Shown piece after piece: positions 2,219 to 61,200 of a stretch of 64,000 bases of DNA (positions are counted from its first letter, which is position 1; every line of letters starts with the position of its first letter). The notes below the pieces were generated by a model. The model had not been told where the DNA came from. It did not search any database and saw nothing but the letters and a program-made list of their open reading frames with translations. The stretch is from an uncultured Candidatus Binatia bacterium (GTDB lineage: Bacteria > Desulfobacterota > Binatia > UBA9968 > JAJDTQ01), in contig OZ219754.1 in assembly GCA_964291295.2 (NCBI GenBank), positions 128,001-192,000 on the forward strand, read 5' to 3'. The translations under genes and the position numbers were made by a program.

Positions 2219-3250
2219 ATGGACCGACACGAACCGCGCGGCGTGGTGCACTGGATCGATCATTTCATCGTGGGCACCAATGACATGGTCACTTGGGTCG
2301 ACTGGGCCGTGAACGCCACCGGCATCACCCGGCGGCCGATTCGCGGCATTACCACCACGGCGCGAAAGAAGGATGTCCCGATCATGTGTTTCCTGTGGTG
2401 GGACAGCGAGTCCTGCCGCATCGGCGCCTTCCTGCAGCCCGAGGTCTACCCGGCCGCCAAGCCCCTGGGCGAGGACACGCCACGATGCGGATTCTACATC
2501 CGGCCCGAGGATGTGAACAGACACGTCAAGCGGCTCGAGCGCCACGCCATCCCGCACACCGGCCCGGTACGGACGGCGGACTGCGGCGAGGAGGGCACGG
2601 TGATCCACTTCGCCGACCCCGACGGCAACCAGTTCGAGTTCTGGGCGCCCGACCACATGCCGGAAGGGGCCATGGAGATATGCACGGCCGAGGGCGTCGG
2701 CCGCATCAGCCACGCGGTGTACGGCTCCCGGGATCTGGGCCGGACCGCCAGCTTTTTCGAACAGTACTGCGCCCTCAAGCCGGAGGTCGGCCCCAACGTC
2801 GCCGAGGGCAATCTGGTCCTGCGTCTGCACGCCGGCGGGCGGCTCATCTACAAGCTCGCCAACCAGGTCGACGAGCGCGTGGCCGGACACGGACCTTGGT
2901 GGGACATGCACACGGCGTTGACGGTGCGGGCGGAGGAGTTCATGCCCAACTACCGCCGGATGTGGGAAACTCTGCCAGAGGAGCGGCGGGCCAAGGAAGA
3001 GGACAACCTCTCGCTGGAGCAGGAGGACGCCCTGCCGGCCCGCACCGGTCTGCACCGGAGTCCGGTGGGTTACCGCTGGAAGGCCATGTTCGAGCGCGGC
3101 GACGAATTCTACGACTGGGACGGCCACGCCTTCCACTTCTTCGGCGGCAGGCCCGTCAAGGACGACGGTTCACTGGCCCTCTACACCATCGTGGAACAGG
3201 AAGACTATCTCACCGACGTCGCCGCGGAGGCGGAGAAGGCCCGCGCCTGA
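2219..3250 (+). CDS. Two-domain VOC/glyoxalase-family protein
   Basis: IDHF motif, FADPDGNQFEFW, ISHAVY and FYDWDGHAFHF motifs; GGAGG RBS upstream; high-GC3 codon usage. Confidence 0.8.
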   Translation: MDRHEPRGVVHWIDHFIVGTNDMVTWVDWAVNATGITRRPIRGITTTARKKDVPIMCFLWWDSESCRIGAFLQPEVYPAAKPLGEDTPRCGFYIRPEDVNRHVKRLERHAIPHTGPVRTADCGEEGTVIHFADPDGNQFEFWAPDHMPEGAMEICTAEGVGRISHAVYGSRDLGRTASFFEQYCALKPEVGPNVAEGNLVLRLHAGGRLIYKLANQVDERVAGHGPWWDMHTALTVRAEEFMPNYRRMWETLPEERRAKEEDNLSLEQEDALPARTGLHRSPVGYRWKAMFERGDEFYDWDGHAFHFFGGRPVKDDGSLALYTIVEQEDYLTDVAAEAEKARA

Positions 3251-3568
3251 GCCGCCGTCCTCCCACCACACCGTCACGGCCGCCGGTCACGCCCAGCGTG
3301 GCCCGGAGCGGTTCGCGAGCACCCGGAACGACCCGGTCCATCGGCCTGCGCTCCAGGCGCCGCTCGCAGGGCTGTCCCACCCTGTTTGCCGGGCCGACCT
3401 TCATTCCCTTGAAACAAGACAACTTCCATGGGCAATGGCCGTCACGCACGGACAGGCGTATGATGGCTGATTGAAACCTTCGGCTACAGCCGCAGCGGAC
3501 TCGGGGTTGTGCAGGCGCCGCTTCGCACGCCGTCACCGGGTGTACGCGGCCCGTGAAAGGACAGGGAC

Positions 3569-4213
3569 GTGACCGACCGGCACAGTCTCTCCGCGCTTCT
3601 CGACGGTGCCCGCGCCTTCCGGACGACCGAATACCGCGGCGCCGATTCCCTCATGGCCCGCCTGTCCATGGGCCAGGAGCCGGATGTCCTGGTGATCGCG
3701 TGCAGCGACTCCCGGGTGGATCCGGCGCTGGTTCTCGGCGCCCGGCCCGGGGACCTTTTCGTGGTACGCGTGGTGGCGAATCTGGTGCCGGCACGGCGCG
3801 CGGACGACACGATGGCCCACGGTGTGATGGCGGCGGTGGAATACGGGTCAAAGCGCTCGGGGTCTCGCATCTGGTGGTGTGCGGCCATTCCCACTGCGGC
3901 GGAATCAAGGCCGCGACGGACGCGGCGCGGGGAAGGGAACTGCCGCCGTTCGAGTGCCTGGGGCCGTGGCCGGCGCGTCGTTCCGGGAGGTGCTGGCGGA
4001 GAGCCCGGGGCCGGCCGCCCGGATGAGGAAGTGGCGGCCGCGGCGGAGCAGCGGTCGGTGCTCAAGTCTCTTGCCAACCTGCGGTCATACGGGTGGATTC
4101 AGGATCGGGTGGAAGGAAGCCGGCTCGCCCTGCACGGCTGGTGGTTCGATATCGATACCGGCCATCTGTGGATCGCGGACACCGCGATGGGGCTCTTCCG
4201 GCCGCTGGATTGA
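3569..4213 (+). pseudogene. Beta-class carbonic anhydrase with internal compensating frameshifts
   Basis: CSDSR and GDLFVVRxVANLV are in the main frame, but the zinc-ligand motif VVCGHSHCGG is in another frame after GAATACGGGTC (~3847). The frame is restored near 4010, giving the LHGWWFDIDTG C-terminus. Confidence 0.75.
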
Positions 4214-4289
4214 CGGCGCCCGCACCACGTCGATCCGGCGGATGCGGGCGGCCGGGAGGAGCCCGGGCCGCGTCCCCGGTTGAGGCCGT

Positions 4290-4766
4290 TCAGTCTCCTG
4301 CCTGCCGCTCCCGTTCGTGAAGCCCGGCGTGTTGCCGGGGGGTCTCGGGCCGCGTGTCCCTGCCCTTCCCCCGGGTGAGCCGCAGCGTGCCGACGAACTT
4401 GACGTTGGCGCAGGCGTCGGCCCCGCCGGTGGCGCACCCTTCGTCGTCGGGGATGAGGAAGCGCAACGGTCCGCCCTTGTCCCGGGGCAAGGGGTCTTCG
4501 CCGACGCGGTAGACGATGAACGCGCGGCGTAGCGCCTCCAGAGGCACGCTGGCGGCAAAGCCGCCGTCGGTGAACTCCACGGTGAGGTAGTCCAGGTCCG
4601 GTGCGGGTTGAAGATGGTCGAGGATGGCCTGAAGCGTCACCGCGCCGCCGACCCGGCCGGGGATCAGCGTGCCGACGTCGGCGACTTGGCCGTCCAGTGC
4701 CGCAAGCCGCCGGAAGTCGAGTTCCAGCGCGGGCTTCCCTTCCTGTTCGATGCGCAGACCGCTCAT
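4290..4766 (-). CDS. Stand-alone molybdopterin-oxidoreductase-like (Oxidored_molyb) domain protein
   Basis: DGGFAASVPL...PLPRDKGGPLRFLIP...CANVK resembles the MsrP/sulfite-oxidase Mo-binding domain; GGAGG RBS. Confidence 0.65.
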   Translation of the reverse strand: MSGLRIEQEGKPALELDFRRLAALDGQVADVGTLIPGRVGGAVTLQAILDHLQPAPDLDYLTVEFTDGGFAASVPLEALRRAFIVYRVGEDPLPRDKGGPLRFLIPDDEGCATGGADACANVKFVGTLRLTRGKGRDTRPETPRQHAGLHERERQAGD

Positions 4767-5768
4767 GGTTCCCTCCTGCGGCCAGCGTACCGCCGCCCGC
4801 CCGTCTCCTCAAGCATCCGTTCCGGTTCGGCGGCGAAGGCCGTTTCTCTTGGCGGCAGACCGGCGCTGGCGAAGGACGCGAGGATGACGACCTCGGCCGT
4901 CATCCTCAGCGAGGTGCTGGGCGGGGACAGCCAGATGGCGCTGACGGGCGACGAGCAGTGCGAACTTCACGACCGGATGCTCCGCTTGGCCGTGCCTTGC
5001 CGCGCCACAGGCTGGGCTTCAGGCCGCCTGCCGACAGCGCCGATCAAGCGCGCCGGACCCCGGCAGACGGACAACCGCGACCGAACGGATGCGCCGTTCC
5101 GCCCTCGCTCGAAAATCAACCACCCCCTCGCCTCAACACGCCGGAACACAAGACCGACCGGACCTGGACCACCCTCTCCTGCGGCCGAACAGGCACCACG
5201 GCGCAAATTTTGCTTGCTTGACAGGGGGGGGATGGTAAGCGTCCGTGACAGGCCCACATGCAACCACATGAATGCAACCACATGACCAGATCAGGAGGGT
5301 TTTACCATGGCTATTGAGCGGACCGGCGGTGCTGGCAACGAATGGCTTTGGGGAGAGAATGGCAATGACAGGTTGGATGGCGGTGCCGGTGACGACATTT
5401 TGACTGGCGGCGCCGGTGACGATACTTTGGCTGGCGGTTCGGGCAATGACCGGATCTGGGGCGGCATTGACGACGACAGGCTGGAAGGCGGCGCTGGAGA
5501 CGACAGACTGACGGGCGGCGTCGGCGCCGACACCTTCGTGTTCCGTACGGGAGACGGCAGCGACACCATTGCCGACTTCAAGGCCGACGATACGATCGAG
5601 ATGGTCGGCGTGTCGGGCGGGTTCGAAGCGTTGGTCATCGAGCAGGATGGCGTCAACGCCGTCATCCGCTACGGCGATCAGGACACGATCACGCTGCTGA
5701 ACGTGACGGCCGCATCGCTGAGCAGGGACGCCTTCCGTTTCGTGACCGCGGAAAGGAAGGTTCTGATG

Positions 5769-6005
5769 GGCGGCAAGGGCGACGACACGCTGAACGGCGG
5801 GGTCGGCGATGACACGCTGAGGGGCAACAAGGGCGACGATACGCTGAACGGCGGGGTCGGCGATGACACGCTGAGGGGCGGCAAGGGCGACGATACGCTG
5901 AACGGCGGGGTCGGCGGCGACACGCTGAGGGGCGGCAAGGGCGACGACACGCTGAACGGCGGGGTCGGCGATGACACGCTGAGGGGCGACAAGGGCGACG
6001 ATACC
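5769..6005 (+). repeat. Coding tandem repeat, ~4.4 x 54 bp ([18 protein letters not shown])
   Basis: Near-identical 54-bp units read directly from the sequence. Confidence 0.85.
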
Positions 6006-6332
6006 TTCGTGTTCGTGGTCGGAGACGGCGACGACACGATCACCGATTTCGAGGCCGGCGACAGGATTCGCCTGGATGGCGTATCCGGCGGGTTCGCGGC
6101 GCTGCGTATCGAACAGGACGGCACCGATACCGTCATCGGCTACAGCGGCGACGATACGATCACCCTGTCGGGCGTGTCAGCGGACAGCCTGGACGCGAAC
6201 GACTTCATCTTGCCCGCCGGCGCTGGCGAAACCACCGAAACACAATCCCGCAACGGCGTTACTCTCAGTGGCGGCGGCTATGACGACGATCTCAGAGGCG
6301 GCGACGGCAACGACGGGCTCTGAGGCGGCGAC

Positions 6333-6597
6333 GGCGACGACACCCTGAACGGCGGCGACGGCAATGACTACCTCTATGGCGGCGACGGTGCCGACACGCT
6401 GAACGGCGGCGAGGGTATTGACCATCTCCACGGCGGCGCTGGCGACGACACCCTGAACGGCGGCGACGGCAACGACTACCTCTATGGCGGCGACGGTGCC
6501 GACACGCTGAACGGCGGCGAGGGTATTGACCATCTCCACGGCGGCGCTGGCGACAACACCCTGAACGGCGGCGACGGCAACGACTACCTCTATGGCA
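6333..6597 (+). repeat. Coding tandem repeat, ~2.5 x 108 bp of RTX nonapeptides
   Basis: 6333-6440 and 6441-6548 are almost identical; a partial third copy follows. Confidence 0.8.
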
Positions 6598-7134
6598 AAG
6601 CTGGCGACGACACGCTGACGGGCGGCTCAGGGGCGGATGCGTTTGTGTTCACGGCCGGTGACGGGGCTGACACGATCACCGATTTCGAGGCAGGCGACAC
6701 AATCGCGATCACCGGTCACCGCGGCGGGTTTTCGGCTTTGCGCATCAAACAGGATGGTGCCGATACCGTTATCGGTTACGGTTCCGACACGATTCGTCTT
6801 GAAGACGTTCAGTCTGCGCAACTGACCGTATCCGATTTCGATTTTCCGTGGTTCTACTTTATGGGCTGATCTTTCCCGGTTTGACCTTTCGGGACGTCCG
6901 GCCTTGGTGGCGCCTGCAACCGCCGTTCCGTGCGCCACCCCGCCGGCAGTGGCAGTGACACATGGGTGCGGTCCCTGCCGGCGCCTGCCCGGGCGCGCCG
7001 CCGACCGAAACACTCAAGAGTCTCGTTCACTCACCCCGTCGACATGGACCTGAGCCTTGGGTTCCGCCGCCCGAGGGCTTGCATGCAAGCGCCGCGCGGT
7101 TGCCCTTGTTGATGGTTGAAGCTTTTGATTGTCG

Positions 7135-7290
7135 GTGTGAAGTTCCAGGGCATGAGGTCGTCGATTGCCGGTCAGGTAGACCTGCGGATGGACGCCGTTG
7201 GGCTTGCGGGTGCCGATCAGGCTGGCGCATCGCGCTTGGGTTCTGTCGCCGTCATGGCTGCCGGCAAGCGGGTGCGCGGGTCCGGACGGG
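7135..7290 (-). mobile_element. IS66-family transposase C-terminal remnant
   Basis: Fragments AGSHDG..ASLIGTRKPNGVHPQVYL and, in another frame, IDDLMPWNF match the IS66 TnpC C-terminal consensus (ASLIETCKLNGVDPxAYL...IDxLLPW). Confidence 0.6.
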
Positions 7291-7526
7291 AGGTGGGGAG
7301 TCCCCACCGGCAACGGGCGGGATGCCGGCGGACCTCCTCTCGCGGCGTCGGGATCTGCGGATACGATGCAGCGAGTCCTCTCCGGTTGCGAAGGAAGCCG
7401 TCCCATACCCCAGACCATCATCCCTTCGTGCAGACAGATGGTCGCAGAAGCCGAAGCGGCGGTACCCGTACTGGACGTGCAGGAAGCGAGATTGCGCTGG
7501 CGGACGGTGCGGGTGTCGCTACGGGC

Positions 7527-7790
7527 TCAGCGCCCGGGTCTGGTGGCCAGCACCTCGTCGAGGCTCGCCGCCACCAGCACCGCCTCCGCCCAAGTCTCCA
7601 GTTCGGCGGCCGAGGCGCCGCGGATCCGCTCGCGGACCACATCCGGCACGTCACCGAAATGCAGTTCCAGAAGACGAAGGACAATTCCAGCCTGGCCCTC
7701 CGCGCGGCCTTCCTCCCGGCCCTCGCTCCGGCCCCGTTCGATTCCCTCAGCTCTTCCCTGTTCGATCCAGGCTTGCGCGACCGTTCCCAT
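7527..7790 (-). CDS. Putative internally initiated small Rpn C-terminal protein (RpnS-like), 87 aa
   Basis: GGAGG at 7800-7796 precedes an in-frame ATG at 7790 (MGTVAQAWIEQG...), the position where Rpn genes carry intragenic starts. Confidence 0.5.
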   Translation of the reverse strand: MGTVAQAWIEQGRAEGIERGRSEGREEGRAEGQAGIVLRLLELHFGDVPDVVRERIRGASAAELETWAEAVLVAASLDEVLATRPGR

Positions 7791-8509
7791 CAGCGCCTCC
7801 CAGCGGTCCGGCTTCGTCCGGCGCAGCGACGCCTCCAGCAAGGGCGGCGTCAGGTTCATGCGCTCGGCAATGTAACGCACGATATGACGCTCGAACGCGC
7901 TCCCCGCAACCGGCCCGCCCGTCATCTCGTCGAGAAGGTCGGGCGGTATCTCCTCGGCATAAACGACCCTGAGCGCCAGAAGCCCGGCCCGCACCTCGGG
8001 CGAGGCCGACAGCCGGCTTGGCGCGATCTCGCGTGCACCACATGGGCGAACTCCCTGACGAACGGCTCCAGCGCCTCGGGCGCGTCGATCATCCCCGGCA
8101 CCGAGCGCGGCGCCGTCCAGCGACCCCGGCCGTGGTAGAAGACCAGCGGGATGATCGCCGGCAGCCTGTCCCCGGCGACGCCATTCTCGATCTCGCGGCG
8201 CCAGATGTTGACCATGTATTTCAGGAGCTGGAGCGGCGTGTCGGCGTCGACCCGGCTCTTGTTCTCCAGGAGTACAGACAGGCGCGCATCGTGGCCGCTC
8301 CTCAGCCTGACCCGGAACAGCGCGTCGCACCGGGTCCGCGCCGCGTCCTCGTCGACGAAACCGCCCTCGACCGCCTCGGGCGGGGCCTCGGGGTCGAGGA
8401 GGGCGGCCACCTCTTGCGGCAGGTATTCCGCGAGCAGCGAAGCGGCGCGGGCCGGCTCGGAGACCAGCGCCCGGAACAGTGCATCGTGCGGCGTCGCCGG
8501 AAGGCTCAC
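7527..8509 (-). pseudogene. Rpn/YhgA-like PD-(D/E)xK nuclease (Transposase_31) with DUF4351-like tail, frameshifted near 8030
   Basis: HDALFRAL, RCDALF, LLENKS and IIPLVFYHG in ORF 7922-8509. The C-terminal EQGRAEGIERG..LLELHFG..LETWAEAVL part is in a different frame. Confidence 0.8.
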
Positions 8510-8679
8510 CGGGAGAGACCCCCGGCATCTCCGGGACGCTCCCGACGGACATCCCGCTCACGGGCTGGAAGAGAAAGGGCGTTCGACATGGCGGTACCCT
8601 ACGCCGGGCACTGTCGTGTCGGCAATCGCCGGCGTCTGCCCCGAGAACAGGCCGGGACCGTCATCACGAGCGGTAGTCC

Positions 8680-9400
8680 CCGAGGATATCGGCGGCAATG
8701 CTGTCGGAGTGACGCGGACGACGGACCCGCGCACCGGGTTCCGCGCCAGATGCGCATACCATGCGGTGGTCTCCACCCGGGTGTGGCCGAGCAGCCGGCC
8801 GATCATCGGCAAACCCTCGCCCGGCGCCAGCGCCCCGCTGGCGACCGACTGGCGGCAATCGTGAAGCCGGGCGTTCCCGATCCCCGCGCGCCGGCAGACC
8901 CGTTCCCACGGGTCATGGAGGTTGTGCATGTGCGTGCCCCTCTTCTTCCCAGGGATCACATGCGGGTTGCACTGGACGCGGGGAATGTTCGCCAGCACGT
9001 CCACTGCCTCCGGCGACACGGCGCGCGCCGGTCTTGGAATCCGCGAGCCGCAACTCGCGTGCATCCAGGTCCACATCCTGCCAGCGCAGCGTCACGATCT
9101 CGTTCCTGCGGCAGCCCATGAGCAGCAGGAGCCGGATCGCGGCAATGGCATGCACCGAGACCCCTTTGCGGTTCTCCGCCTCGGCCAGCGTCCGCCCGAG
9201 GTGGCGGAACTCCTCCTCGCTCAGGAACCGCTCGCGCCCAACGTTCCCGGTTCTTCACAACCAGCCGGCAGGGGTTGCTCGCCTTCGGCAGCTGCCCCTG
9301 GTCCTCCGCCGCGTTTCACAGGCGCGAAAGGGTGCTGACCACTTGGTCCGCCGTCACCGGGGTCGCGCGCAGGGAATGGCGCAGTTCCGTCACCTTGGCA
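8680..9400 (-). pseudogene. Degenerate tyrosine recombinase/integrase
   Basis: RERFLSEEEF, LLLLMGCRRNEIVTLRW, DSKTG, RLHDCR and LLGHTRVETTAWYAH motifs are split across frames. Confidence 0.8.
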
Positions 9401-9741
9401 TGGTCCAATGCCAGTTGGACCAGGAGCCCGGCGAATTTCCAACCGCGGTTTTGTCCAACGCAAAGTGAGCCTGAAGCAGGGGTGTCGGGGATCATCAGGA
9501 GATGATCGTGACACTTCGAACGGAACGCCCGGGGACTATCGAGCCGGTTGCGGCCTTGTTCGAGGCGAACGAGCCTGTAGACTTTCACCCGACCGAGCGA
9601 GCCCCCGCTCACCCCGTCGGCCCACATCTCAACACAACCCCCGGCATGGGAAAGTCCTGGCGCCGCTCGCACATCGTATTGAAAACCCGTCCCTGATCTG
9701 CAAACATTCCGCAGAAATTCCTTCTCAATCGGGAGGCTCTC

Positions 9742-10626
9742 ATGGACGTGGTCAAGGTCGACTTCAGGAACACCAAGGGGATTCCGCCGTCCGGTCTCTG
9801 CGTGGGCGTGCACCGCGCCGGCGCCATGCATCGGAAGATGGTGCAAAAACACGGCAACGGCATCGCGGTGTGGTCGCTGAGGCCGGAGAACGACTTCATC
9901 GCCTTCAAGACGCTGGAAGATGAAGCGGGCATCCGTTCCACCAGCGACATGGAGTCGATCAGGGAGGAAAAGCTCATCTACGGCGTCCGGGGTGCGCCGC
10001 CGGAGGTTCGGCGGCAGGCGAAGGAGCAGGGTCTGGAACTGCTGGCCGACGCCACCTGTCCGTTCGTGGTTCAGCAGGAGGAAGCGGAACTGGAGCTGCT
10101 GGACCAGGGTTGCCACCTGGTCATCCTGAGCAGCCGCACGCACCACGGTATTCCGCGTCTCATGGGTATCGCCGAAGAGAAGGGGCGGGAGGTGTTCATC
10201 GTCGAGAGGGAAACGGATGTCGACGACATCCGACTGACCCGCTTCGAGCCCGTGGGAGTCATCGTCCAGACCACGTTCTGGATGGAGAGCTACACGAAGA
10301 TCATGACCCGGATCCTGGAGCGCTTCGCCAACGTTCGCATTCGCAACACCGCCTGCATCGACTCGCTGCAGCGGCTGCCCAAGGTCGAGGAATTGGCGCG
10401 TGACGTGGAGGCGGTGGTCATCTTCGGCTGGACCGAGGGCATGACCTACCGCATGGAGGAGGTGGCGCGGGCCTTCAATGACAACGTCTACCGTATCGAG
10501 AAGATCGAGGACCTGAACCCCGCGTGGTTCACGGGCAAGTCCCGGATCGGCATTGTCGGCGCCAACGAGACCACCGATGAATTGGTGGACGGGGCGGTGG
10601 AACGCATCAAGTCCATGGCCGCCTGA
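9742..10626 (+). CDS. Divergent IspH/LytB-fold iron-sulfur protein (probably not a canonical HMBPP reductase)
   Basis: GLCVGVHRA, DATCPFV, QTT and NTAC motifs plus the LxPxWF..IG tail align with IspH, but the HN, SHG, HPE, SSN and GAS motifs are altered. Confidence 0.8.
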   Translation: MDVVKVDFRNTKGIPPSGLCVGVHRAGAMHRKMVQKHGNGIAVWSLRPENDFIAFKTLEDEAGIRSTSDMESIREEKLIYGVRGAPPEVRRQAKEQGLELLADATCPFVVQQEEAELELLDQGCHLVILSSRTHHGIPRLMGIAEEKGREVFIVERETDVDDIRLTRFEPVGVIVQTTFWMESYTKIMTRILERFANVRIRNTACIDSLQRLPKVEELARDVEAVVIFGWTEGMTYRMEEVARAFNDNVYRIEKIEDLNPAWFTGKSRIGIVGANETTDELVDGAVERIKSMAA

Positions 10627-10641
10627 GCAGGATCAACACCC

Positions 10642-12120
10642 ATGTCCAAATCCCTGTCCAAGTCCGCCGCCGTGGAAGCCCGACTGCCTTATCACGATCT
10701 CCGCGAATGGATGGCCCGGGCCGATGCCCTGGGCGAACTCCGCACCGTCACCGGGGCCAGCTGGGAAGAAGACATCGGTCTGGCCGCCGACGCCGTGATC
10801 CGGGTCGACGACGGCCCGGCGGTGCTGTTCGACCAGGTTCCCGGCTGCCCCAGGGGGTTCCGCGTCCTGATCAACACGTTCGCCGGCAAGCGCCGGAACA
10901 TGACGCTCGGATTTCCCGGGCACCTCACCAAGCAGGAGTTGAGCCAGGCCTTCTTTGACCATTACATCAAGGTGCAGCGCCGGCTGCCCCATGTGGGGGT
11001 GGATGACGGACCGGTGTTCGAGAACATCCTCACCGGCGATGACATCGACATCACCCGGTTCCCCACGCCCAAGTGGCACGCGGACGACGGCGGCCGCTAC
11101 ATCGGAACGGGTTGCTTCTGCGTGACCATCGACCCCGAGGAGCGCTGGATCAACGTCGGCACCTACCGCGCCATGGTGCAGGACAGGAAATCGGTGAGCC
11201 TCCTGTTCGTCCCCGGCAAGCACGCCTACATGCACCGCAAGAAGTACTTCGACAAGGGCCAGCCCATGCCCGTGGCCCTGGTGGTGGGCAGCGACCCCAT
11301 GTCGTTCTTCGTGGGGGGCACGGAGTTTCCCTACGGCGTCTGCGAGTTCGACGTCGTGGGCGGGCTGCGCGGCACGCCCGTCGAAGTGGTGCGGGGCAAG
11401 GTCACCGGCCTGCCCTTCCCCGCCAACGCCGAGATCGTGCTGGAAGGATTCCTGACCGCGGACCACCGCGCGGTGGAGGGGCCGTTCGGGGAGTGGACCG
11501 GCTACTATGCCGGCGGTGCCAGCGAGCAGCCCACGCTGGACATCCGCGCCGTCTACCACCGCAACGACCCCATCATCCTGGGGGTGCCGCCGCTGGGCGC
11601 GGGCTCCGACGAGATGGCCCGCTACCGCGCCATCATGCGCTCGGCCATGCTGAAGCACGAACTGATCCAGGCCGGCGTCCCGGACGTGACCCAGGTATGG
11701 TGCCACGAGGTGGGCGCCTCGCGCCTGCTGCACGGCATCGGCATCAAGCAGCGTTATCCCGGCCACGCCCGGCAGGCGGGCACTCTGGCCTCCACCTGCG
11801 GCTCGGTGGTGTACGGCTGCAAGTTCGTCATCGTGGTGGACGACGACATCGACGTGTCCAACCTGGACCAGTTGATATGGGCCATGCTCACCCGGTGCGA
11901 TCCGGAGACCTCCATCGAGATCCTGCGCCGGATGCGCACCTCTCCCGCCGACCCGCGGGTGACGCCGGAACAGCGCAGGACCCGCGACATCACCAACTCC
12001 CGCGTCGTCGTGGACGCCTGCCGTCCCTTCGAGTGGTTCGACAGCTATCCCAAGGTCAATGCGCCCGGCCCGGATGTGGTCCGAAAGGCTCACGAAAAAT
12101 TCGGCTACCTGCTGGACTGA
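10642..12120 (+). CDS. UbiD-family (prenyl-FMN-dependent) decarboxylase
   Basis: DLREW, DGGRYIGT, NVGTYR, EGPFGEWTGYY and VVDDDID motifs. Confidence 0.92.
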   Translation: MSKSLSKSAAVEARLPYHDLREWMARADALGELRTVTGASWEEDIGLAADAVIRVDDGPAVLFDQVPGCPRGFRVLINTFAGKRRNMTLGFPGHLTKQELSQAFFDHYIKVQRRLPHVGVDDGPVFENILTGDDIDITRFPTPKWHADDGGRYIGTGCFCVTIDPEERWINVGTYRAMVQDRKSVSLLFVPGKHAYMHRKKYFDKGQPMPVALVVGSDPMSFFVGGTEFPYGVCEFDVVGGLRGTPVEVVRGKVTGLPFPANAEIVLEGFLTADHRAVEGPFGEWTGYYAGGASEQPTLDIRAVYHRNDPIILGVPPLGAGSDEMARYRAIMRSAMLKHELIQAGVPDVTQVWCHEVGASRLLHGIGIKQRYPGHARQAGTLASTCGSVVYGCKFVIVVDDDIDVSNLDQLIWAMLTRCDPETSIEILRRMRTSPADPRVTPEQRRTRDITNSRVVVDACRPFEWFDSYPKVNAPGPDVVRKAHEKFGYLLD

Positions 12121-12138
12121 GCGCACGGGGACCGACAC

Positions 12139-12693
12139 GTGACCCCCGGCGCCGCCCGCTTCGCCCAAGCCGCCCTGGTGGGAGACTCGGACGCATCCGA
12201 ACACAACCTGACGCTGGCCGAGGAGGCCGGCGCGATGCTTGCGCGGCTGGGCGTCACCCTGATCACCGGCGGACGGGGCGGGGTCATGGAGGCGGCTTCC
12301 CGAGGCGCCGCGCGGGCCGGCGGCCTCACCGTGGGAATCACCCCCGGCACCGACACGAGAGCCGCCAACCCCTGGTGTGACGTGATCCTGCCCACTGGCC
12401 TCGGCCATGCCCGCAACGTCCTCACCGCGCTGGCCGGCGACTTTGTCGTGGCGGTGGGCGGCGGTGCCGGCACCCTTTCCGAGCTGTGCTTCGCATGGAT
12501 TCACCGGCGCCCCCTGTACGTCCTGCGCGGTTCGGGCGGTTGGTCCGACCGGCTGGCCGGCGGCCCGCTCGATCACCGCGCCGCATCGGTGATCGTCGAC
12601 TGTGACAGCGTCAACACGCTGGAACGCCAGGTGGTGCGCTTCTGCGCCGCGAGCGGACTGCGGATCCGCGAGCCGGGTGCGGAACGAGGCTGA
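12139..12693 (+). CDS. LOG-like / TIGR00725 family protein
   Basis: TGGRGGVMEAASRGA, ARN and GGGAGTLSE motifs. Confidence 0.85.
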   Translation: MTPGAARFAQAALVGDSDASEHNLTLAEEAGAMLARLGVTLITGGRGGVMEAASRGAARAGGLTVGITPGTDTRAANPWCDVILPTGLGHARNVLTALAGDFVVAVGGGAGTLSELCFAWIHRRPLYVLRGSGGWSDRLAGGPLDHRAASVIVDCDSVNTLERQVVRFCAASGLRIREPGAERG

Positions 12694-12732
12694 GGCGGCG
12701 TTCCGCCCGATGCCCGCGGTGGTGCATGAATC

Positions 12733-13788
12733 ATGAACGCGCGCTCACCGGCACTGTTCTGGCTCCTGGTGCTGGCGGCGGCGCTGCTGCTGGTCTGGCT
12801 TCTGAGCGATGTCCTGTTTCCCTTCGCGCTGGGCATCGCCCTGGCCTACGCCCTGGACCCGGCCGCCTCCTGGCTGGTCCGGCGCGGCTGCACGCGCACG
12901 GCGGCCGCGGTCCTCATTGGCGCCGGCTTTTTCGGCGCCGGATTGCTGCTGCTGTTGCTGCTCCTCCCGCCCGTGCTGGAGCAGGCTTCGGACCTGCTCC
13001 AGCACCTTCCGGGACTGGTCTCCCGAATCGGCGAATCCATCGGACCGCTTCTGGGCCGGGCCCTGCAAGCCGTGGGCGCCGACCCGCCCGAGGGACTGCC
13101 CGAGGCGCTGACCGGCATGGCCCGGCTGGGACGGGACCTGTTCAAGGGACTGGCGAGCGGCGGCGGTGCGGTCATCCACATCGCTTCCCTGCTGACCCTC
13201 ACCCCCCTCACCACTTTCTACGTGCTGCGGCAATGGCCCGGCATCGTCGCCGCCGTGGATGACGGGCTGCCCCGGGACCATGCCGGCACGGTGCGCGGCA
13301 TCATGCGCGACATCGACGTGGTGCTCAAGGGCTTCGTCCACGGCTCGGTCATCATCTGCGCGGTGCTGGGGGCTTTCTACGGCCTTGCGCTGTCGCTGGC
13401 CGGCCTCGACTACGGCCTCACCATCGGACTCGCCACCGGCCTCCTCTCCTTCATCCCCCATGTGGGAACAATCTTCGGGCTGGTGTCGTCCGCGGGCGTC
13501 GCCTTCCTGCAATTCTGGCCGGAATGGTTGCGCATCGCCGTGGTCCTGGGCATCTTCCTCGCGGGCCAACTGCTGGCCGACCACGTCCTGATGCCCCGGG
13601 TCATGGGCCGCCGCATCGCCCTCCACCCCCTGTGGCTGGTCTTCGGCCTGTTCGCCGGCGGCGCCCTCTTCGGCTTCGTCGGCATGCTGCTGTCGGTGCC
13701 CGCCACCGCCGCCGCCGGCGTCCTCACCCGCTTCTTCCTCCGGCGCTACAAGGACTCCCCCCTGTATCGCGGCGCGGGCGGCGCCTGA
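12733..13788 (+). CDS. AI-2E (PerM-like) family transporter
   Basis: Multi-pass hydrophobic protein with PF..LAYALDP, SFIPHVG and LHPLW..GFVGMLLSVP motifs. Confidence 0.88.
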   Translation: MNARSPALFWLLVLAAALLLVWLLSDVLFPFALGIALAYALDPAASWLVRRGCTRTAAAVLIGAGFFGAGLLLLLLLLPPVLEQASDLLQHLPGLVSRIGESIGPLLGRALQAVGADPPEGLPEALTGMARLGRDLFKGLASGGGAVIHIASLLTLTPLTTFYVLRQWPGIVAAVDDGLPRDHAGTVRGIMRDIDVVLKGFVHGSVIICAVLGAFYGLALSLAGLDYGLTIGLATGLLSFIPHVGTIFGLVSSAGVAFLQFWPEWLRIAVVLGIFLAGQLLADHVLMPRVMGRRIALHPLWLVFGLFAGGALFGFVGMLLSVPATAAAGVLTRFFLRRYKDSPLYRGAGGA

Positions 13789-14106
13789 CCCGCGGCCGAC
13801 GCTCCGGAGCCACACGCCGCGCCCGTCTTGCCACGCACACCGGGGTGGGCTTGCATCGCATCCATGGGCATCCTGACCACGCCGCCAGGCTGCTGGACAT
13901 TCGAATTCGTGGGTCATGGCCGCGGGCCGTCGAGGTTCGCGCGCCGACTTCGCACGTCCACGCGCCTGGGATTGATCGGCATGAATTCGCGACTCGCTCC
14001 GCATACCCGCCGCCGGCACGGATGCCGCCTTGGCAAGTGCGGTCCGGCGGTGTTACAGGGTCGGTGGAGTGGTTCAAGGCGCGACCGTCGACGTACGAGG
14101 TGAGGA

Positions 14107-15183
14107 ATGGAACTGGAGCGGGATATCGAGGAAATTCGCGATGCGGCGAGGACCGGTCTCATGGAAACGGCGGCGGACGTTTCCCAGGGCATCGTGCTTC
14201 GATTGCTGCAATCTCTGGGATGGCCAACCTTCGATACGCGAACGGTCCGCCCGCAATACGGTCTTGAAAAGAGCCGGGTCGATTTCGCTCTCTGCCATCC
14301 GCCGGGAAGGCCGGTTGTCTTCATCAAGGTGACGAGGAAGCATATCGGTCAGGGCGGCGGCGCGGAAAGACAACTGTTCGAGCATGCGTTTCACACGGAA
14401 GTGCGGCTGGTGATCCTGACGGATGGTCGGGAGTGGCATTTCTTTCTTCCCTTTCTTCCGGGGCAGCGGCGCGGCTACGAGGAGCGGCGTATCTGCAAAC
14501 TCGATATCGTGGAACGGCAGATTGACGAATGTGCGCAGAGGCTGAGCCGATACCTGAAGTACGACGACATGCGTTCCGGGAGGGCAATCGAAGCTGCACG
14601 GGAGGACTATCGAGATGCCTCCCGCAAACGGCAAATCGAGAAGACCCTGCGGCAGGCATGGATGCAACTGGTGGCGGAAGAGGATGATATCCTGCTGGAG
14701 TTGCTGGCAGACAAGGTGAAAAGTCTCTGCGGATACAAACCGGACCCCGATACGATTGCACGCTTCCTCAAGAAGAGTTCAGCCTCTTTCGTACCGACCC
14801 TACCGCCTCCCACACCTGCGCCACCCGAGGGAGGTGAATCAAAGGCACCCGGATTCACATTCGAGGGGAAACGGCACCCGGCGCACAGTGCCATGGATGT
14901 CCTTGTGAGCCTGCTGGAGAAGCTGACCGAACACGACCCCTCGTTTCCGGAACGATTTGCCCGTCTTCCCACTCATGGTCGCACGCGGCGGTATCTCGCA
15001 CGCGACCGCGAGGCCTTGTACCCGGGTCGTCCCGACCTGGCGCGGGACTGTTCCAGACGATTGGAATCGGGTTGGTGGGTGGGTACAAACTTCAGCCGCG
15101 CAGGCATCCGCCGAATTATCGGGATGGCCTGCGATGTCGCCGGTATTCGGTACGACGACCTGCATGTGGAGTTGGGCGGGTAA
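14107..15183 (+). CDS. HsdR N-terminal-like restriction-nuclease-fold protein with a SeqA-like C-terminal domain
   Basis: LLQSLGW..VRPQY..RVDFAL..ILTDGREWHFF (HsdR_N-like), a Pro-rich linker, then GRTRRYLA...WWVGTN resembling the SeqA C-domain; lower GC3 than neighbours. Confidence 0.65.
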   Translation: MELERDIEEIRDAARTGLMETAADVSQGIVLRLLQSLGWPTFDTRTVRPQYGLEKSRVDFALCHPPGRPVVFIKVTRKHIGQGGGAERQLFEHAFHTEVRLVILTDGREWHFFLPFLPGQRRGYEERRICKLDIVERQIDECAQRLSRYLKYDDMRSGRAIEAAREDYRDASRKRQIEKTLRQAWMQLVAEEDDILLELLADKVKSLCGYKPDPDTIARFLKKSSASFVPTLPPPTPAPPEGGESKAPGFTFEGKRHPAHSAMDVLVSLLEKLTEHDPSFPERFARLPTHGRTRRYLARDREALYPGRPDLARDCSRRLESGWWVGTNFSRAGIRRIIGMACDVAGIRYDDLHVELGG

Positions 15184-46857: not shown

Positions 46858-47843
46858 TCACCCGATGAATTCGAAGTCGGATTCGGTAAAGTCGGATGCG
46901 GTAAAGGGGGATCCCGTTCCCACGACCACGGGCGAGTAAAGCGTGACGCTCCAGTCATCCCCGGGCCCGGTGATCACCACCCATGAGTGCACCCAGACAT
47001 CCCCGCCATCCTTGATGGTCAGATCCGAGAACTGGATGCCGCCCTCGAACACCAGCTTGTCCTTGTTGTCCTCGAAGAAATCTATCCTGTCATGACCGCT
47101 TTCGTTGTCGAACACGAAGCGGTCCTCACCCTCGCCGCCCCGCATCCAGTCGTCGCCCTTGCCGCCGTACAGAACATCGTCGCCCTCTTGGCCGAACAGT
47201 GTGTCGCCGCCGTCGCCACCGTACATGGTATCGTCGCCCTCATGGCCCCATAAAAAGTCGACGCCGCTGCCGCCGTACAGGGTATCGTCGCCCTCACCGC
47301 CACTCAAATTGTCGTGGCCGCCGCCGTACAGAATGTCGTCGCCGTCGCTGCCGCTCATCCTGTCGTCGCCGCTGCCGCCGTACAGGGTATCGTCGCCCTC
47401 ACCGCCCGTCAAAAAGTCGCGGCCCCCGGCCCCGTACAGGGTATCGTCCCTGCGCCGCCGCTCATACTGTCGTCGCCGGGGCCGCCGTACAGAATGTCGT
47501 CGCCGTCGCTGCCGGACATACTGTCGTCGCCGGGGCCGCCTTTCAGAATGTCGTCGCCGTCGGCGCCGTACATAGTGTCGTCGCCGGGGCCGCCTTTCAT
47601 CCGGTCGTCGCCGCCGCCGCCGTTCAGCCTGTCGTCGCCCTCACCCCCTTTCAGAATGTCGTTGCCGTCGGCGCCGTACAGGTTGTCGTCGCCCTTGCCG
47701 CCGAACATCGTTTCTTCGCCACGTCCACCACTCCAATGATCATCATGATCGGTGCCCGTGAACGTGTAGCGGAAATTCTTGTCCGCCCACCAAGCGGTGC
47801 CGTCCTCTCCCAGCAACCTCATGAGCTTGTACCGGACTTTCAC
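46858..47843 (-). pseudogene. RTX Ca-binding repeat protein, frameshifted near 47447
   Basis: Repeats in ORF 47409-48434 stop matching at SMSGGA and resume in the 46858-47412 frame; GTG start at 47843 with a purine-rich RBS. Confidence 0.75.
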
Positions 47844-58272: not shown

Positions 58273-61200
58273 TCACCAGCGCAGCGAGACCCGCACCTCC
58301 AGGCTGTGATCGGCGGAGTCGCGGTCCTGGCTGCGCTCGCCCTCAAACGAAAGCTCGAATGCCGGAGCGATGGTGTAACGCGTGCCCACGCGCACGCTCC
58401 CTTCACCCCGCTCCGCCAGCGTGAACCCGACATACGGGCTCAGCAACGCCATCGGCCCCGACCCCAACACCCCGAAGCCGTAACCCACCTCCGCATCCAG
58501 CTGACTCTCCGCCTCTGCTCCGCTCCCCGTCAGGAACGACGTGCCCGGCGTGCGGTCGAACAGCCCATCCAGATCCGTCGCGGTGACCCCGTATGCCGGC
58601 GTCAATGTCAGGAACAGCCCGCTCCCGTCCGCTCCCGGATCCAGTTGCACCATGCCGCCCACTCCCCATTCCTCCCGGTCCCGCTCGTGCGCCACCAGCG
58701 CCCGCGTGCGCAACTCCACCGTCAGCCCCATCCCCGGCTCGCGCCAACTCACGCTCGCCCCCACTTCCGCTCCCACCCCTTTTTCCACATCCCCGCTGTC
58801 GTGCCGCATCCCCACCTCCAGCGCCGGCGTCACCGTCCCGCCCCCCTCCAGCGCACGCTCATACGATCCCTCCAGCGCCAGGCGCAGCCGGCGCGCATCC
58901 ACCGAAAGCGCCTCCAGACCCGATCCCGCTTCCGTCTTCACCCGCACCATCGACCCCTCCCCACGTACCGCCACCCGCGTCACCCCGCCCGCAATCCACT
59001 CCCCATCCTCGCTCAGCACGCCGCGCCCGCCCGCCGCCGCACTCGTCAGCTTCATCTCCACTTCACGGTCCGCCCGCTCCGCCTCCTCCACGCCCACCTC
59101 GCCCTCGCCGTACCCCGCGCTCGCCCACAGGTTCGATCCGTCTCCGCTCAGCCACGCCGCATAGGGATGCACCGCCGTCAACTCCGTCTTGTACACTCCC
59201 TTCACACGGTTGCCCCCCGCGTCGTCCACCTCCGTGTCCAACTCCCCGCGGGAATGCGACAACGCCACCCCCGCCAGCACGTCCGCCCGCAGCCGCACAT
59301 CCGTTCCCAGATGCGCCGACCACACCTCCCCGTCCCAGGAAACGTCCTCCTCCGAACCCGACAGCGAGTCCAGGTCACCCCGACCCCACACCGCCACCCT
59401 CGGAACGCTCCCCCCGCTCATCCCGGATGCGCCCATCGGCAGCGCGAACGCCGCCCCGTCCAGCATGTCCCGCAGGTCCGGATTCTCCGCTTCCTTCTCC
59501 AACATCCCGCGCAGGCCCGAACCCCGGCCCGAACCCCACTCATCCTCCAGCATCCCGCGCGGCCACGCTCTCCGCTGCTCCTCCAGCCACACGCCGTCCG
59601 CCCCCTCCCTCGCACCGGGCGCCGCCTGGGCCACGCCGAAATGCAGCGACCGGCCCGCCTTCCCCGACGCCACCGCCTGGATGCGACCCGCCACCGCATC
59701 CAGCGACTGCGACGCCATTGCCGCCGCCACCTGCGGCAGCACCGCTCGGTGGACCTTGTTGGCGTGCGCCGCCATCGTGTCCTCCACCGTCACCGTCACG
59801 CTCCCGCCCGTCACTGCCACCTCCATGTTGCCCATCATGGCCGTGTGCCTCAGCGTCACCGTGTCGTCGTCCGTGTCGTCGTCCGGCACACCCGTCACCG
59901 TCACCGGCTGCGGGGTGTTCCAATTGGCGGTGGTGAAGGTCAGCGGTCCCGAAACCGTCGCAATCGCCGTGTTGTCGCTCGCCGGCGTCACCATGACCGT
60001 ATCCGCCGGCGCCTCGTCCAGAACCACCGTGTAGGTACCGCTCCCCCCCTCGGATATCGTCAGCGCGGTCGGCGTCACCGTCAGACCGACCGTCGTACCG
60101 GTGTCGCCGGTGAAGCCTTGGTAGCCCGTGCCCGGAGGACCATCCAGCAACTTGCCCTGGACCGTCACCTCCTCGCCGATGGCATAGCCGGTGGCATCGT
60201 TCAGCGTGACCGTGTACTTCTCGACGCCTTCCGATGCGTCGGCGTCCACGCTGGTGCGAATCGCAATGGTGCCGGTCCTGCGGCCGCCGAAATTCACGTT
60301 GAATGTCCGCGTCAGCGCCCCCTGAATATCATCCGCCGTGAAGCCGCTCGAATCCCGATCGGACAGCGTCAGGCTCACCGAAAGAACGCCCGGTACCGGC
60401 TTGTCCGAACGGACGGCCAAGGTGATCGGTGTCCCCTCGCTCACCCGGGCGGGATTCGCTCCGAGCGTCAGGGTAGGCGTCGTGTCCCGGACCCAGAGGC
60501 TTCTCGTAAACATGCCGTCTTTCGGGTAGCAATGGCCGCCGCCCTTTGCACGGACCAGAACGGTTATCCCGTGGTCGCTGGTATCCTCATCCGCGTTCAA
60601 CTTCACCCAGATAACCTGCGGCTTGTTCCAATTTGATGGGGTGAACGTGAGATAATTCGGACCTCCCGAATAGATGGTCGCCTTGTCGGTGTATGTCCAC
60701 TCGCCGTTCTTTACAACGAACGGCATGGGAACCAATTCCAACGGCGCCGTGGGCGCTTTCCTGGGGTGGATCCAGTACTCGACCGCATCTCCCTCGGCGG
60801 GGGGAGTGGGGCTCGGGAAGCCCTTGCTCTTTCTGGACGGCCATTCCACCGTCCAGCCCATGTATGACCAATATACGCCCCAGGTGGTCGTATCCCATTT
60901 ACTGGGCACATGGGCTTTCGCTGCCCGTGTGGCCCAGGTCGCCGTCGTCGCTCTGAGTTCGACCTCCTGCGATGGCAGACACTCGTCGGAGGTCAGGACG
61001 TAGCTGGTGGCGGATGCGTCCGGGATGGTGACCCAGTCGTGCCACCTCTCGTACCGGGCCATCGAACCGTTGAAGGTCCGGTACCGGGCCTGCCAGCCGG
61101 TACGGCCCGGATGATCCGGTGCGGTCCAGCTCAGATGCAGCTTGTCGCCCCGTCGATTCACCGTCAGGTCGATGGGAACCCCCGTGTCATCAAGCGGACT

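Follow-up and report, generated by a model that had tools for sequence, protein, structure and literature searches.

A candidate second activity of the IspH fold, with a conserved ferredoxin partner, in Candidatus Binatia

IspH has been studied as an enzyme of one reaction, the reduction of 4-hydroxy-3-methylbut-2-enyl diphosphate (HMBPP), and as a drug target, and to our knowledge its fold has so far been known for that single reaction. The locus described here raises the question of whether the fold has also been put to other use. It lies in a stretch of 64 000 nucleotides (the window; C1:128001–192000 of G000, the 3.70 Mb genome of an uncultured Candidatus Binatia bacterium; G, L and P label genomes, loci and proteins), in which a 294 aa IspH-like (LytB-fold) protein, putatively a [4Fe-4S] protein, is encoded on the + strand at 9742–10626, ahead of genes for a UbiD-family decarboxylase and a TIGR00725 protein. 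An earlier note on this DNA had taken it to be a repurposed IspH-fold Fe-S protein in an operon with these two neighbours, and the first part of that proposal is supported by a canonical ispH elsewhere in the genome, by constraint on the gene and by a separate clade. The conserved partner of the IspH-like gene is a ferredoxin, not UbiD. From sequence comparisons we consider it fairly probable that the protein is a ferredoxin-dependent, neofunctionalised enzyme of the IspH fold that acts on a substrate other than HMBPP. A full-text search of a limited literature library, supplements excluded, returned nothing on such an IspH-like clade or on a UbiD link, and the Binatota/Binatia literature found in the same library did not mention UbiD.

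Fold, residues and clade of the IspH-like protein

The LYTB profile (PF02401) matched residues 16–289 of the 294 with 139.9 bits (cut-off 24.5), and an AlphaFold2 model predicted from a 40-row alignment had a mean predicted local distance difference test score (pLDDT) of 92.0 and a predicted template modelling score (pTM) of 0.87. Compared by Foldseek, it matched E. coli IspH chains with a probability of 1.00, TM-scores of 0.83–0.85 and 20–21 % identity. The three-domain fold, the three cysteines, H124 and Q166-T167-T168 (E. coli numbering) are common to this protein and the solved IspH structures from E. coli (3ke8, 3szu) and Aquifex aeolicus (3dnf), as, likely, is the need for a one-electron donor; it differs in that identity to the solved chains is 20–25 % and in that E126, H41, H74, S225, N227 and S269 are replaced. 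Against models of ispH itself the scores were low, with TIGR00216 at 117.7 bits (cut-off 187.85) and NF002187 at 129.6 bits (cut-off 276), and all seven NCBIfam ispH models left the protein far under their cut-offs.

Individual residues were mapped by HMMER alignment to the E. coli and Aquifex IspH proteins and in a 104-row alignment with 90 canonical representatives and 10 representatives of the clade to which the window protein belongs. Both alignments bore out the claim of the earlier note that the cluster cysteines and the QTT motif are kept: C12, C96 and C197 of E. coli IspH correspond here to C20, C106 and C205 (in GLCVG, DATCP and NTAC), which are predicted to bind the cluster, and H124 and Q166-T167-T168 are retained on the cluster side. 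A [4Fe-4S] cluster bound by these three cysteines would have one of its irons open. The substrate-side changes that had been pointed out (the HN His lost, VRG, HHGI, WTEGM and GAN) were likewise found. The columns concerned are near-fixed among the 90 canonical rows, of which 89 have H41, 88 have H74, and all 90 have each of N42, E126, S225, N227 and S269; the retained H124 is also present in all 90. In place of H41 stands an acidic residue (Asp or Glu), and H74 is replaced by Arg. HPEV has become HHGI, with Gly at E126, or Arg in a 12-row alignment, and never Glu; all 10 clade rows have Gly or Arg there. SSN has become W-TEGM, with Glu, Gly and Met at S225, S226 and N227 (the clade ranging over Glu/Gln at S225 and Met/Lys at N227), and GAS has become GAN, S269 being Asn in the HMMER alignment and Glu, Val or Ala in the 104-row alignment. 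As one replacement pattern is common to all 10 clade representatives, it does not appear by chance. In place of the residues that bind the diphosphate of HMBPP and relay protons through E126, the clade has an invariant set of its own, comprising R47, an acidic residue at 49, R83, H135-G136, R139, D207, W230, E232, M234 and N275.

A profile search of the same genome found a canonical ispH at C1:1159654–1160493 (314.6 bits, over cut-off), so that the IspH-like gene is not the sole ispH, a point the earlier note had wished to see checked. Clade proteins of at least 70 % identity were found in 16 of 201 genomes sampled from the class, namely in 12/12 of the window's genus (86–100 % identity), 2/2 of the sister family f78 and 2/13 of the sister family f77, and all 16 carried a second, canonical-type match (in this and later counts over the 201 genomes, the unpublished G329 and G233 were included as negative rows only). 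A LytB phylogeny had also been proposed, and in a quick maximum-likelihood tree of 104 rows (LG+G4) the protein fell in a separate clade: a branch of length 0.34 set 13 rows apart from the 91 canonical ones, with a support of 100 in the Shimodaira–Hasegawa-like approximate likelihood ratio test (SH-aLRT). These 13 were the 10 clade members together with P0141, P0143 and P0203, the 10 forming one side of a branch with a support of 92. In the whole-library search 3207 LytB proteins were found at E ≤ 0.001 and just 24 at E ≤ 1e-30; after the close relatives came a few full-length proteins at 43, 39, 35 and 34 % identity, with ordinary IspH at 26–33 %. A homolog search with P0124 yielded 15 metagenome proteins, and an ESM Atlas search gave LytB clusters only.

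Conservation was assessed over 132 related loci, 28 with an IspH-like identity of at least 86 % and 104 at 69–77 %; a metagenome scan with the clade alignment found 247 relatives, of which the 80 best, with identities of 70–90 %, were kept. An uninterrupted full-length protein is encoded at 128 of the 132 loci, the other four being cut by contig ends (two) or truncated or frameshifted (two). Eighteen of 19 tabulated residues are invariant in 128/128 (C20, R47, R83, C106, Q112, H134, H135, G136, R139, Q176, T177, T178, C205, D207, W230, E232, M234 and N275), and the nineteenth, position 49, is Glu or Asp. Across the loci of at least 86 % identity the IspH-like protein is 86–93 % identical, compared with 59–81 % for a transporter encoded in the same block. 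This copy is under strong purifying selection, the opposite of the random decay that the earlier note had named as grounds for abandoning its proposal. Six contigs with a clade gene (L043, L045, L051, L053, L061 and L062) came from bins labelled Udaeobacter, Verrucomicrobiia or Gaiellaceae; the clade proteins they encode share 71–75 % identity with those of Binatia, and mis-binning or transfer may account for them. P0083, a metagenome clade member of 370 aa, was considered as a fusion and rejected as such, as it contains an exact internal duplication of ∼75 residues that is most likely an assembly artefact.

Could the protein be a second HMBPP reductase, with a differently built phosphate pocket? 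The retained fold, cysteines, H124 and T167 would allow it, the invariant R47, R83 and R139 could bind phosphate, and relatives are named 4-hydroxy-3-methylbut-2-enyl diphosphate reductase in several sources, presumably through automatic annotation. Speaking against such an isozyme are the absence of E126, which every canonical representative has, the low scores with all seven ispH models and the canonical copy present alongside in each of the 16 genomes, and we regard it as very improbable. Mycobacterium tuberculosis likewise has two LytB homologs per genome, LytB1 and LytB2, both treated as IspH homologs of the methylerythritol phosphate (MEP) pathway in the relevant passages of a published report (PMC4550268). 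The protein described here differs from that pair, as those passages present it, in being without the residues that define HMBPP reduction.

The conserved ferredoxin partner

Among loci at 69–77 % identity, 93 had at least 420 bp of downstream flank, and at 91 of these the IspH-like gene is directly followed by a co-directional 93 aa gene, with a median of 7 bp between the two. At L060, one of the two remaining loci, the same gene comes immediately after a frameshifted IspH-like copy, and L039 is without it. The product is a ferredoxin of the Fer2 family (PF00111, 38.8 bits; 46 bits to ferredoxin 9i2a) with the conserved segment LRHDCTEAICGTDRVK. It shares the Fer2 fold and three of the four ligand cysteines with ferredoxins of the iron–sulfur cluster (ISC) and plant types (9i2a, 1i7h), C36, C41 and C79 being retained in 90–91 of the 91 copies; the third ligand, Cys in those proteins, is Asp here. 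In the alignment to solved [2Fe-2S] ferredoxins this residue, Asp44, occupies the column of their third ligand cysteine; it is Asp (in CTEAICGTD) in 91/91 copies, and the fdx_isc model scored the protein at 40.8 bits against a cut-off of 132.1.

The two genes also go together at the level of whole genomes. A ferredoxin of at least 67 % identity was found in 15 of the 201 genomes, all of them among the 16 with the IspH-like gene, and in 0 of the 185 others; a further 17 matches were weak, at 34–45 % identity. The exception, G275 (100 contigs, 93 % completeness), has the IspH-like gene and no such ferredoxin. Of the 12 genomes of the window's genus, 11 have the ferredoxin, yet it stands beside the IspH-like gene neither in the window nor at any of the 28 loci of at least 86 % identity. 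In G000 it is encoded at C1:539033–539305 (67 % identity), ∼400 kb away, and in the six genomes of this genus that have both genes on one contig they are 0.38–1.5 Mb apart. The window's arrangement is probably a derived one and the adjacency of the ferredoxin, as in f77 and f78, the ancestral state, because the latter is seen in both sister families and because the sequences from soil fall outside the window's group in the tree, its root taken as given. In G000 the ferredoxin gene is followed by a gene of the methylisocitrate lyase/phosphoenolpyruvate (PEP) mutase family (C1:538050–538985; L186:7050–7985, − strand), whose 311 aa product scored 272.2 bits with TIGR02317, below the cut-off of 354.4.

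The division of labour that we favour would leave HMBPP reduction to the genome's canonical ispH, and the IspH-like protein would bind a different substrate at its open iron. That substrate would probably be anionic, as the three invariant arginines (R47, R83 and R139) suggest, and would carry a hydroxyl or an oxo group. The likeliest reaction, judged from that of IspH, would be reductive dehydroxylation or else a redox-linked dehydration of a related kind, for which the dedicated 93 aa [2Fe-2S] ferredoxin, with Asp as its third ligand, would supply the electrons. In the window's genus the two genes would have become separated, the IspH-like gene now standing at the head of a block with genes for UbiD, the TIGR00725 protein and an AI-2E family transporter; outside this genus nothing requires the IspH-like enzyme and UbiD to share a substrate. 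The IspH-like enzyme and its Cys3-Asp ferredoxin form a conserved module and are candidates for a second IspH-fold activity. A conserved clade with an open-iron site and a rebuilt pocket would show a further reach of organometallic chemistry and, as its own electron donor is encoded, the proposal is directly testable by expressing both genes together.

Several points weigh against a non-HMBPP substrate or narrow the evidence for it. Ferredoxin or flavodoxin is the electron donor of canonical IspH as well, and the partner therefore supports redox chemistry whilst being silent on the substrate. The three invariant arginines could still bind phosphate or diphosphate, and the alignment to IspH is what predicts which invariant residues line the pocket. 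The ferredoxin gene is not adjacent in the window itself. Furthermore, the genomes are kin and fall into about four lineages (the window's genus, f78 and two f77 genera), which makes for about four independent observations rather than sixteen, and genomic context was taken from loci of at least 69 % identity, with the distant P0124 and P0130 (39–43 %) outside that range.

A further explanation would make the protein no catalyst at all but a redox-sensing or electron-transfer Fe-S protein in which only the cluster has been kept. It would fit the loss of the catalytic Glu, the constancy of another small Fe-S protein as partner and the wide variation of neighbours beyond the pair. The polar residues R47, R83, H134, H135, R139, D207 and E232 are, on the other hand, invariant at former pocket positions, which fits a specific ligand better, and no DNA-binding or signalling domain is present in a protein that PF02401 spans from residue 16 to 289 of 294; we consider this explanation improbable.

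The adjoining UbiD and TIGR00725 genes

The UbiD-family decarboxylase gene (10642–12120, + strand, 492 aa), the gene of the TIGR00725/SLOG LDcluster4 protein (12139–12693, + strand, 184 aa, GTG start) and that of the AI-2E family transporter (12733–13788, + strand, 351 aa; PF01594, 172.3 bits, cut-off 34.3) follow the IspH-like gene on the same strand at gaps of 15, 18 and 39 bp, and the ORF coordinates agree with the three-gene row and the 15 and 18 bp gaps already reported for this DNA. The block is probably transcribed together. A Shine–Dalgarno-like GGGAGG (9731–9736, + strand) stands 5 nt before the IspH-like ATG, and ∼30 nt before that codon lies a 34 nt motif, TTGAAAA-N9/10-GATyTGCrAACATTCCGC (9679–9712, + strand), which has a single copy here, recurs at 16 of the 28 loci of at least 86 % identity and is found nowhere else in the 132 loci. 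We read it as a possible promoter of the extended −10 type (TTGAAA, 17 nt, TGc, AAACAT); a scan of 9000–14200 for consensus promoters and terminators found 0 promoter-like sites and 2 terminator-like sites, compared with 2.4 expected.

The window UbiD is over cut-off with TIGR00148 (267.3 bits, cut-off 244.85) and with the profiles of all three UbiD domains, N-terminal, central and C-terminal (PF20695, PF01977 and PF20696). In an 18-row alignment of orthologs and paralogs, N171, R176, H194, E235, E279 and E284 were invariant; we take these six to be the metal, cofactor and catalytic positions by comparison with Fdc1, where an Arg, the two Glu of an E-x4-E segment and the metal ligands fill these roles, and the enzyme looks active as judged from its residues. 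Its best solved relative is 7pda (367.9 bits over residues 18–474), identified in the pertinent part of a published report as PhdA, the phenazine-1-carboxylate decarboxylase of Mycobacterium fortuitum (PMC10850782). An EGPFGEWTGY segment and the arginine of a TYR motif are common to both, although the window UbiD is one of 27 paralogs and falls below the cut-offs for the phenylphosphate carboxylase beta subunit and VdcC.

As for the third gene, the label TIGR00725/LOG-like given in the earlier note held in its first half. Its product scored 127.1 bits with TIGR00725 (cut-off 106.9) and is the sole copy over cut-off in G000; the likeness to LOG holds at the superfamily level only, with TIGR00730 (LOG) at 47.1 bits (cut-off 96.35) and the cytokinin phosphoribohydrolase equivalog at 33.3 (cut-off 300). 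The nearest solved chains, at ∼81 bits, are TM1055 (1rcu) and the molybdenum cofactor (Moco) carriers 6y01 and 2iz5, with which it shares the SLOG Rossmann fold, whereas LOG phosphoribohydrolases reach only 28–44 bits. Its GGRGGVMEA and GGGAGTLSE segments resemble the glycine-rich motifs of LOG. Possible functions include the hydrolysis of a nucleotide and the carrying of a cofactor.

How deep does the association with UbiD run? The order IspH-like, UbiD, TIGR00725 is found on one strand in 28/28 loci of at least 86 % identity, with the UbiD start 7–139 bp after the IspH-like gene in 26 of them and the AI-2E gene following in 23. In L012 and L020 a segment of 1.3–1.5 kb lies between the IspH-like and UbiD genes, which in L012 contains a 383 aa ORF on the opposite strand. 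A full UbiD gene adjoins the IspH-like gene in 0 of the 104 loci at 69–77 % identity; in L123 and L127 a UbiD of 40 % identity is encoded 5.7 kb upstream. Since the identity range of the 28 syntenic loci matches that of the 12/12 sampled genomes of the window's genus, they probably amount to about one genus, and the UbiD link is genus-deep and does not define the family. The operon and pathway of the earlier note hold at best to this extent, with a tight row and an upstream motif among close relatives and no such row at the more distant loci. The locus carries a warning about genomic context: the tight, operon-like row is about one genus deep, and the informative partner lies 400 kb off in G000.

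Within the genus, a local pathway is possible, though doubtful, and it would add to a ferredoxin-dependent, non-HMBPP activity rather than exclude it. The IspH-like enzyme would remove or rearrange a hydroxyl on an aromatic or heteroaromatic acid that the PhdA-like UbiD decarboxylates, or the steps would run in the reverse order, whilst the TIGR00725 protein and the AI-2E transporter would handle a cofactor or product. The gene order has been held in all 28 loci though the upstream flank is variable among them, the 34 nt motif recurs at more than half of them, and in other lineages the neighbours are often of aromatic, xenobiotic or redox families (bicupin, PF01494, VOC, a reductive-dehalogenase-like protein, glutathione S-transferases, nitroreductase). 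Moreover, a different UbiD paralog has left a 53 aa N-terminal remnant (L073:2755–2913, L074:3812–3970 and L076:6227–6385) ∼55 bp downstream of the ferredoxin gene and ahead of a gene for a bicupin; the three copies are identical in this region and represent one soil lineage. The remnant was rejected as an ortholog of the window UbiD, as another G000 paralog is closer (63 % identity and 62 bits, compared with 49 % and 40.6 bits), and neither a bicupin nor an AAA gene was found beside that paralog in G000.

Other observations run counter to a local pathway, beginning with the shallow depth of the adjacency and the two loci in which an unrelated segment splits the pair. The UbiD ortholog also occurs apart from the IspH-like gene. 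It is present at 71 % identity in G345 and G307, f77 genomes that do have the IspH-like gene, standing alone in G345 between ORFs that resemble, from their translations, an aldo-keto reductase and a peptidase. In G157 and G251, f77 genomes without the IspH-like gene, orthologs are found at 70–71 %. Conversely, G193 and G259 of f78 have both the IspH-like and the ferredoxin gene, and their best UbiD match reaches just 48 %. The expected co-occurrence of the clade with ubiD accordingly fails in both directions. Some chance adjacency is also to be expected from the 21–59 UbiD genes per genome, a range counted in nine relatives of the same order (G152, G157, G166, G184, G193, G251, G259, G307 and G345; for G193, G259, G345 and G307 by protein search at E ≤ 1e-60). 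TIGR00725 homologs occur in 72 of 151 genomes of the phylum, and a general link between TIGR00725 and UbiD was rejected, with a UbiD within 1.5 kb at 0 of 29 foreign TIGR00725 loci. A complex prediction for UbiD with the IspH-like protein scored 0.00, which counts neither for nor against.

The earlier note had further suggested that the protein might supply or mature prenylated flavin mononucleotide (prFMN), the cofactor of UbiD, either by making dimethylallyl phosphate for UbiX (for instance from a monophosphate analogue of HMBPP) or by oxidative maturation. In favour of such a service, UbiD adjoins in the window, the demand for cofactor should be high with 27 UbiD genes over cut-off and one ubiX in G000, and H124 and T167, which hold the hydroxymethylbutenyl group in IspH, are retained. 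The ubiX gene, a single TIGR00421 match (232.7 bits, C1:3252830–3253375), lies ∼3.1 Mb from the IspH-like gene and outside the window, in agreement with the earlier remark that the window has none, and the 132 loci contain no ubiX. In each of five f77 genomes that lack the IspH-like gene there are 31–59 UbiD-family matches, from which it follows that the UbiD expansion is a trait of the whole order, the IspH-like gene being patchy, and the family-wide partner is the ferredoxin, not UbiD or UbiX. Given UbiD genes without the IspH-like gene, genomes with 31–59 copies and no ubiX at 132 loci, it is highly improbable that the protein generally supplies or matures prFMN.

The reading favoured here, an IspH-fold enzyme with its own ferredoxin, can be drawn out into a fuller form that we put forward only tentatively and rate as rather unlikely when taken whole. 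This would be a second natural activity of the IspH fold, served by the Cys3-Asp ferredoxin, on a non-isoprenoid and probably carboxylate-bearing substrate from the breakdown of aromatic, heteroaromatic or xenobiotic compounds; in the genus of the window it would form part of an unpublished dehydroxylation–decarboxylation route with the PhdA-like UbiD.

Neighbouring genes and the rest of the window

The wider surroundings of the pair were compared by clustering 612 neighbour ORFs from the 104 loci at 69–77 % identity, called with a crude gene caller based on GC content at third codon positions (GC3). The sole constant neighbour was the ferredoxin, clustered from 87 loci, and the others varied: members of the ornithine-cyclodeaminase/mu-crystallin family (27 loci), AhpD/CMD-like proteins (24), reductive-dehalogenase-like proteins (22; TIGR02486 113.2 bits, below the cut-off of 160.35), a GntR regulator (17), glutathione S-transferases (GSTs) of three types (16, 11 and 6), a nitroreductase (15), an NMT1-type binding protein (14), a small cupin (13) and the bicupin, which resembles gentisate or 5-aminosalicylate dioxygenase (10). 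VOC proteins, an FAD-dependent oxidoreductase (PF01494) and PrdB-like pieces were also present. These neighbours lean towards redox, detoxification, and aromatic or imino-acid metabolism, which gives a hint as to the substrate and nothing more.

At L123:8357–9271 a 304 aa protein with a 4Fe-4S dicluster domain is encoded after an ornithine-cyclodeaminase-family gene downstream of the IspH-like/ferredoxin pair. The PrdB-like (D-proline reductase) and AhpD/peroxidase-related ORFs are adjoining short pieces that match successive parts of a profile (L057:10124–10615 and the next ORF; L054:8620–9090 and 9109–9501; L123:4473–5903), and may be broken genes or else selenoprotein genes in which TGA is read through.

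Upstream of the block, the window encodes a 343 aa VOC/glyoxalase-like protein (2219–3250, + strand) that is 91 % identical to the product of a 346 aa gene that precedes the IspH-like gene at 15 of the 28 loci of at least 86 % identity; PF00903 scored just 23.8 bits on the L014 copy. This gene probably stood next to the block, on its upstream side, in the ancestral arrangement, and here is separated from it by ∼6.5 kb. The DNA in between (3251–9741) resembles inserted or degraded sequence. It includes mobile-element debris at 7922–9076, made up of a Transposase_31 ORF (7922–8509, − strand; PF04754, 121.2 bits) and a phage-integrase fragment that matches only the C-terminal part of its profile (8558–9076, − strand; PF00589, 28.0 bits), as well as a short molybdopterin-oxidoreductase fragment (4290–4766, − strand) and a 338 aa protein with RTX calcium-binding repeats (5307–6323). 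A second RTX-repeat protein is found at 46858–47412, and a 1902 aa protein with fn3, PKD, Calx-beta and Ig-like domains is encoded at 58273–63981 on the − strand.

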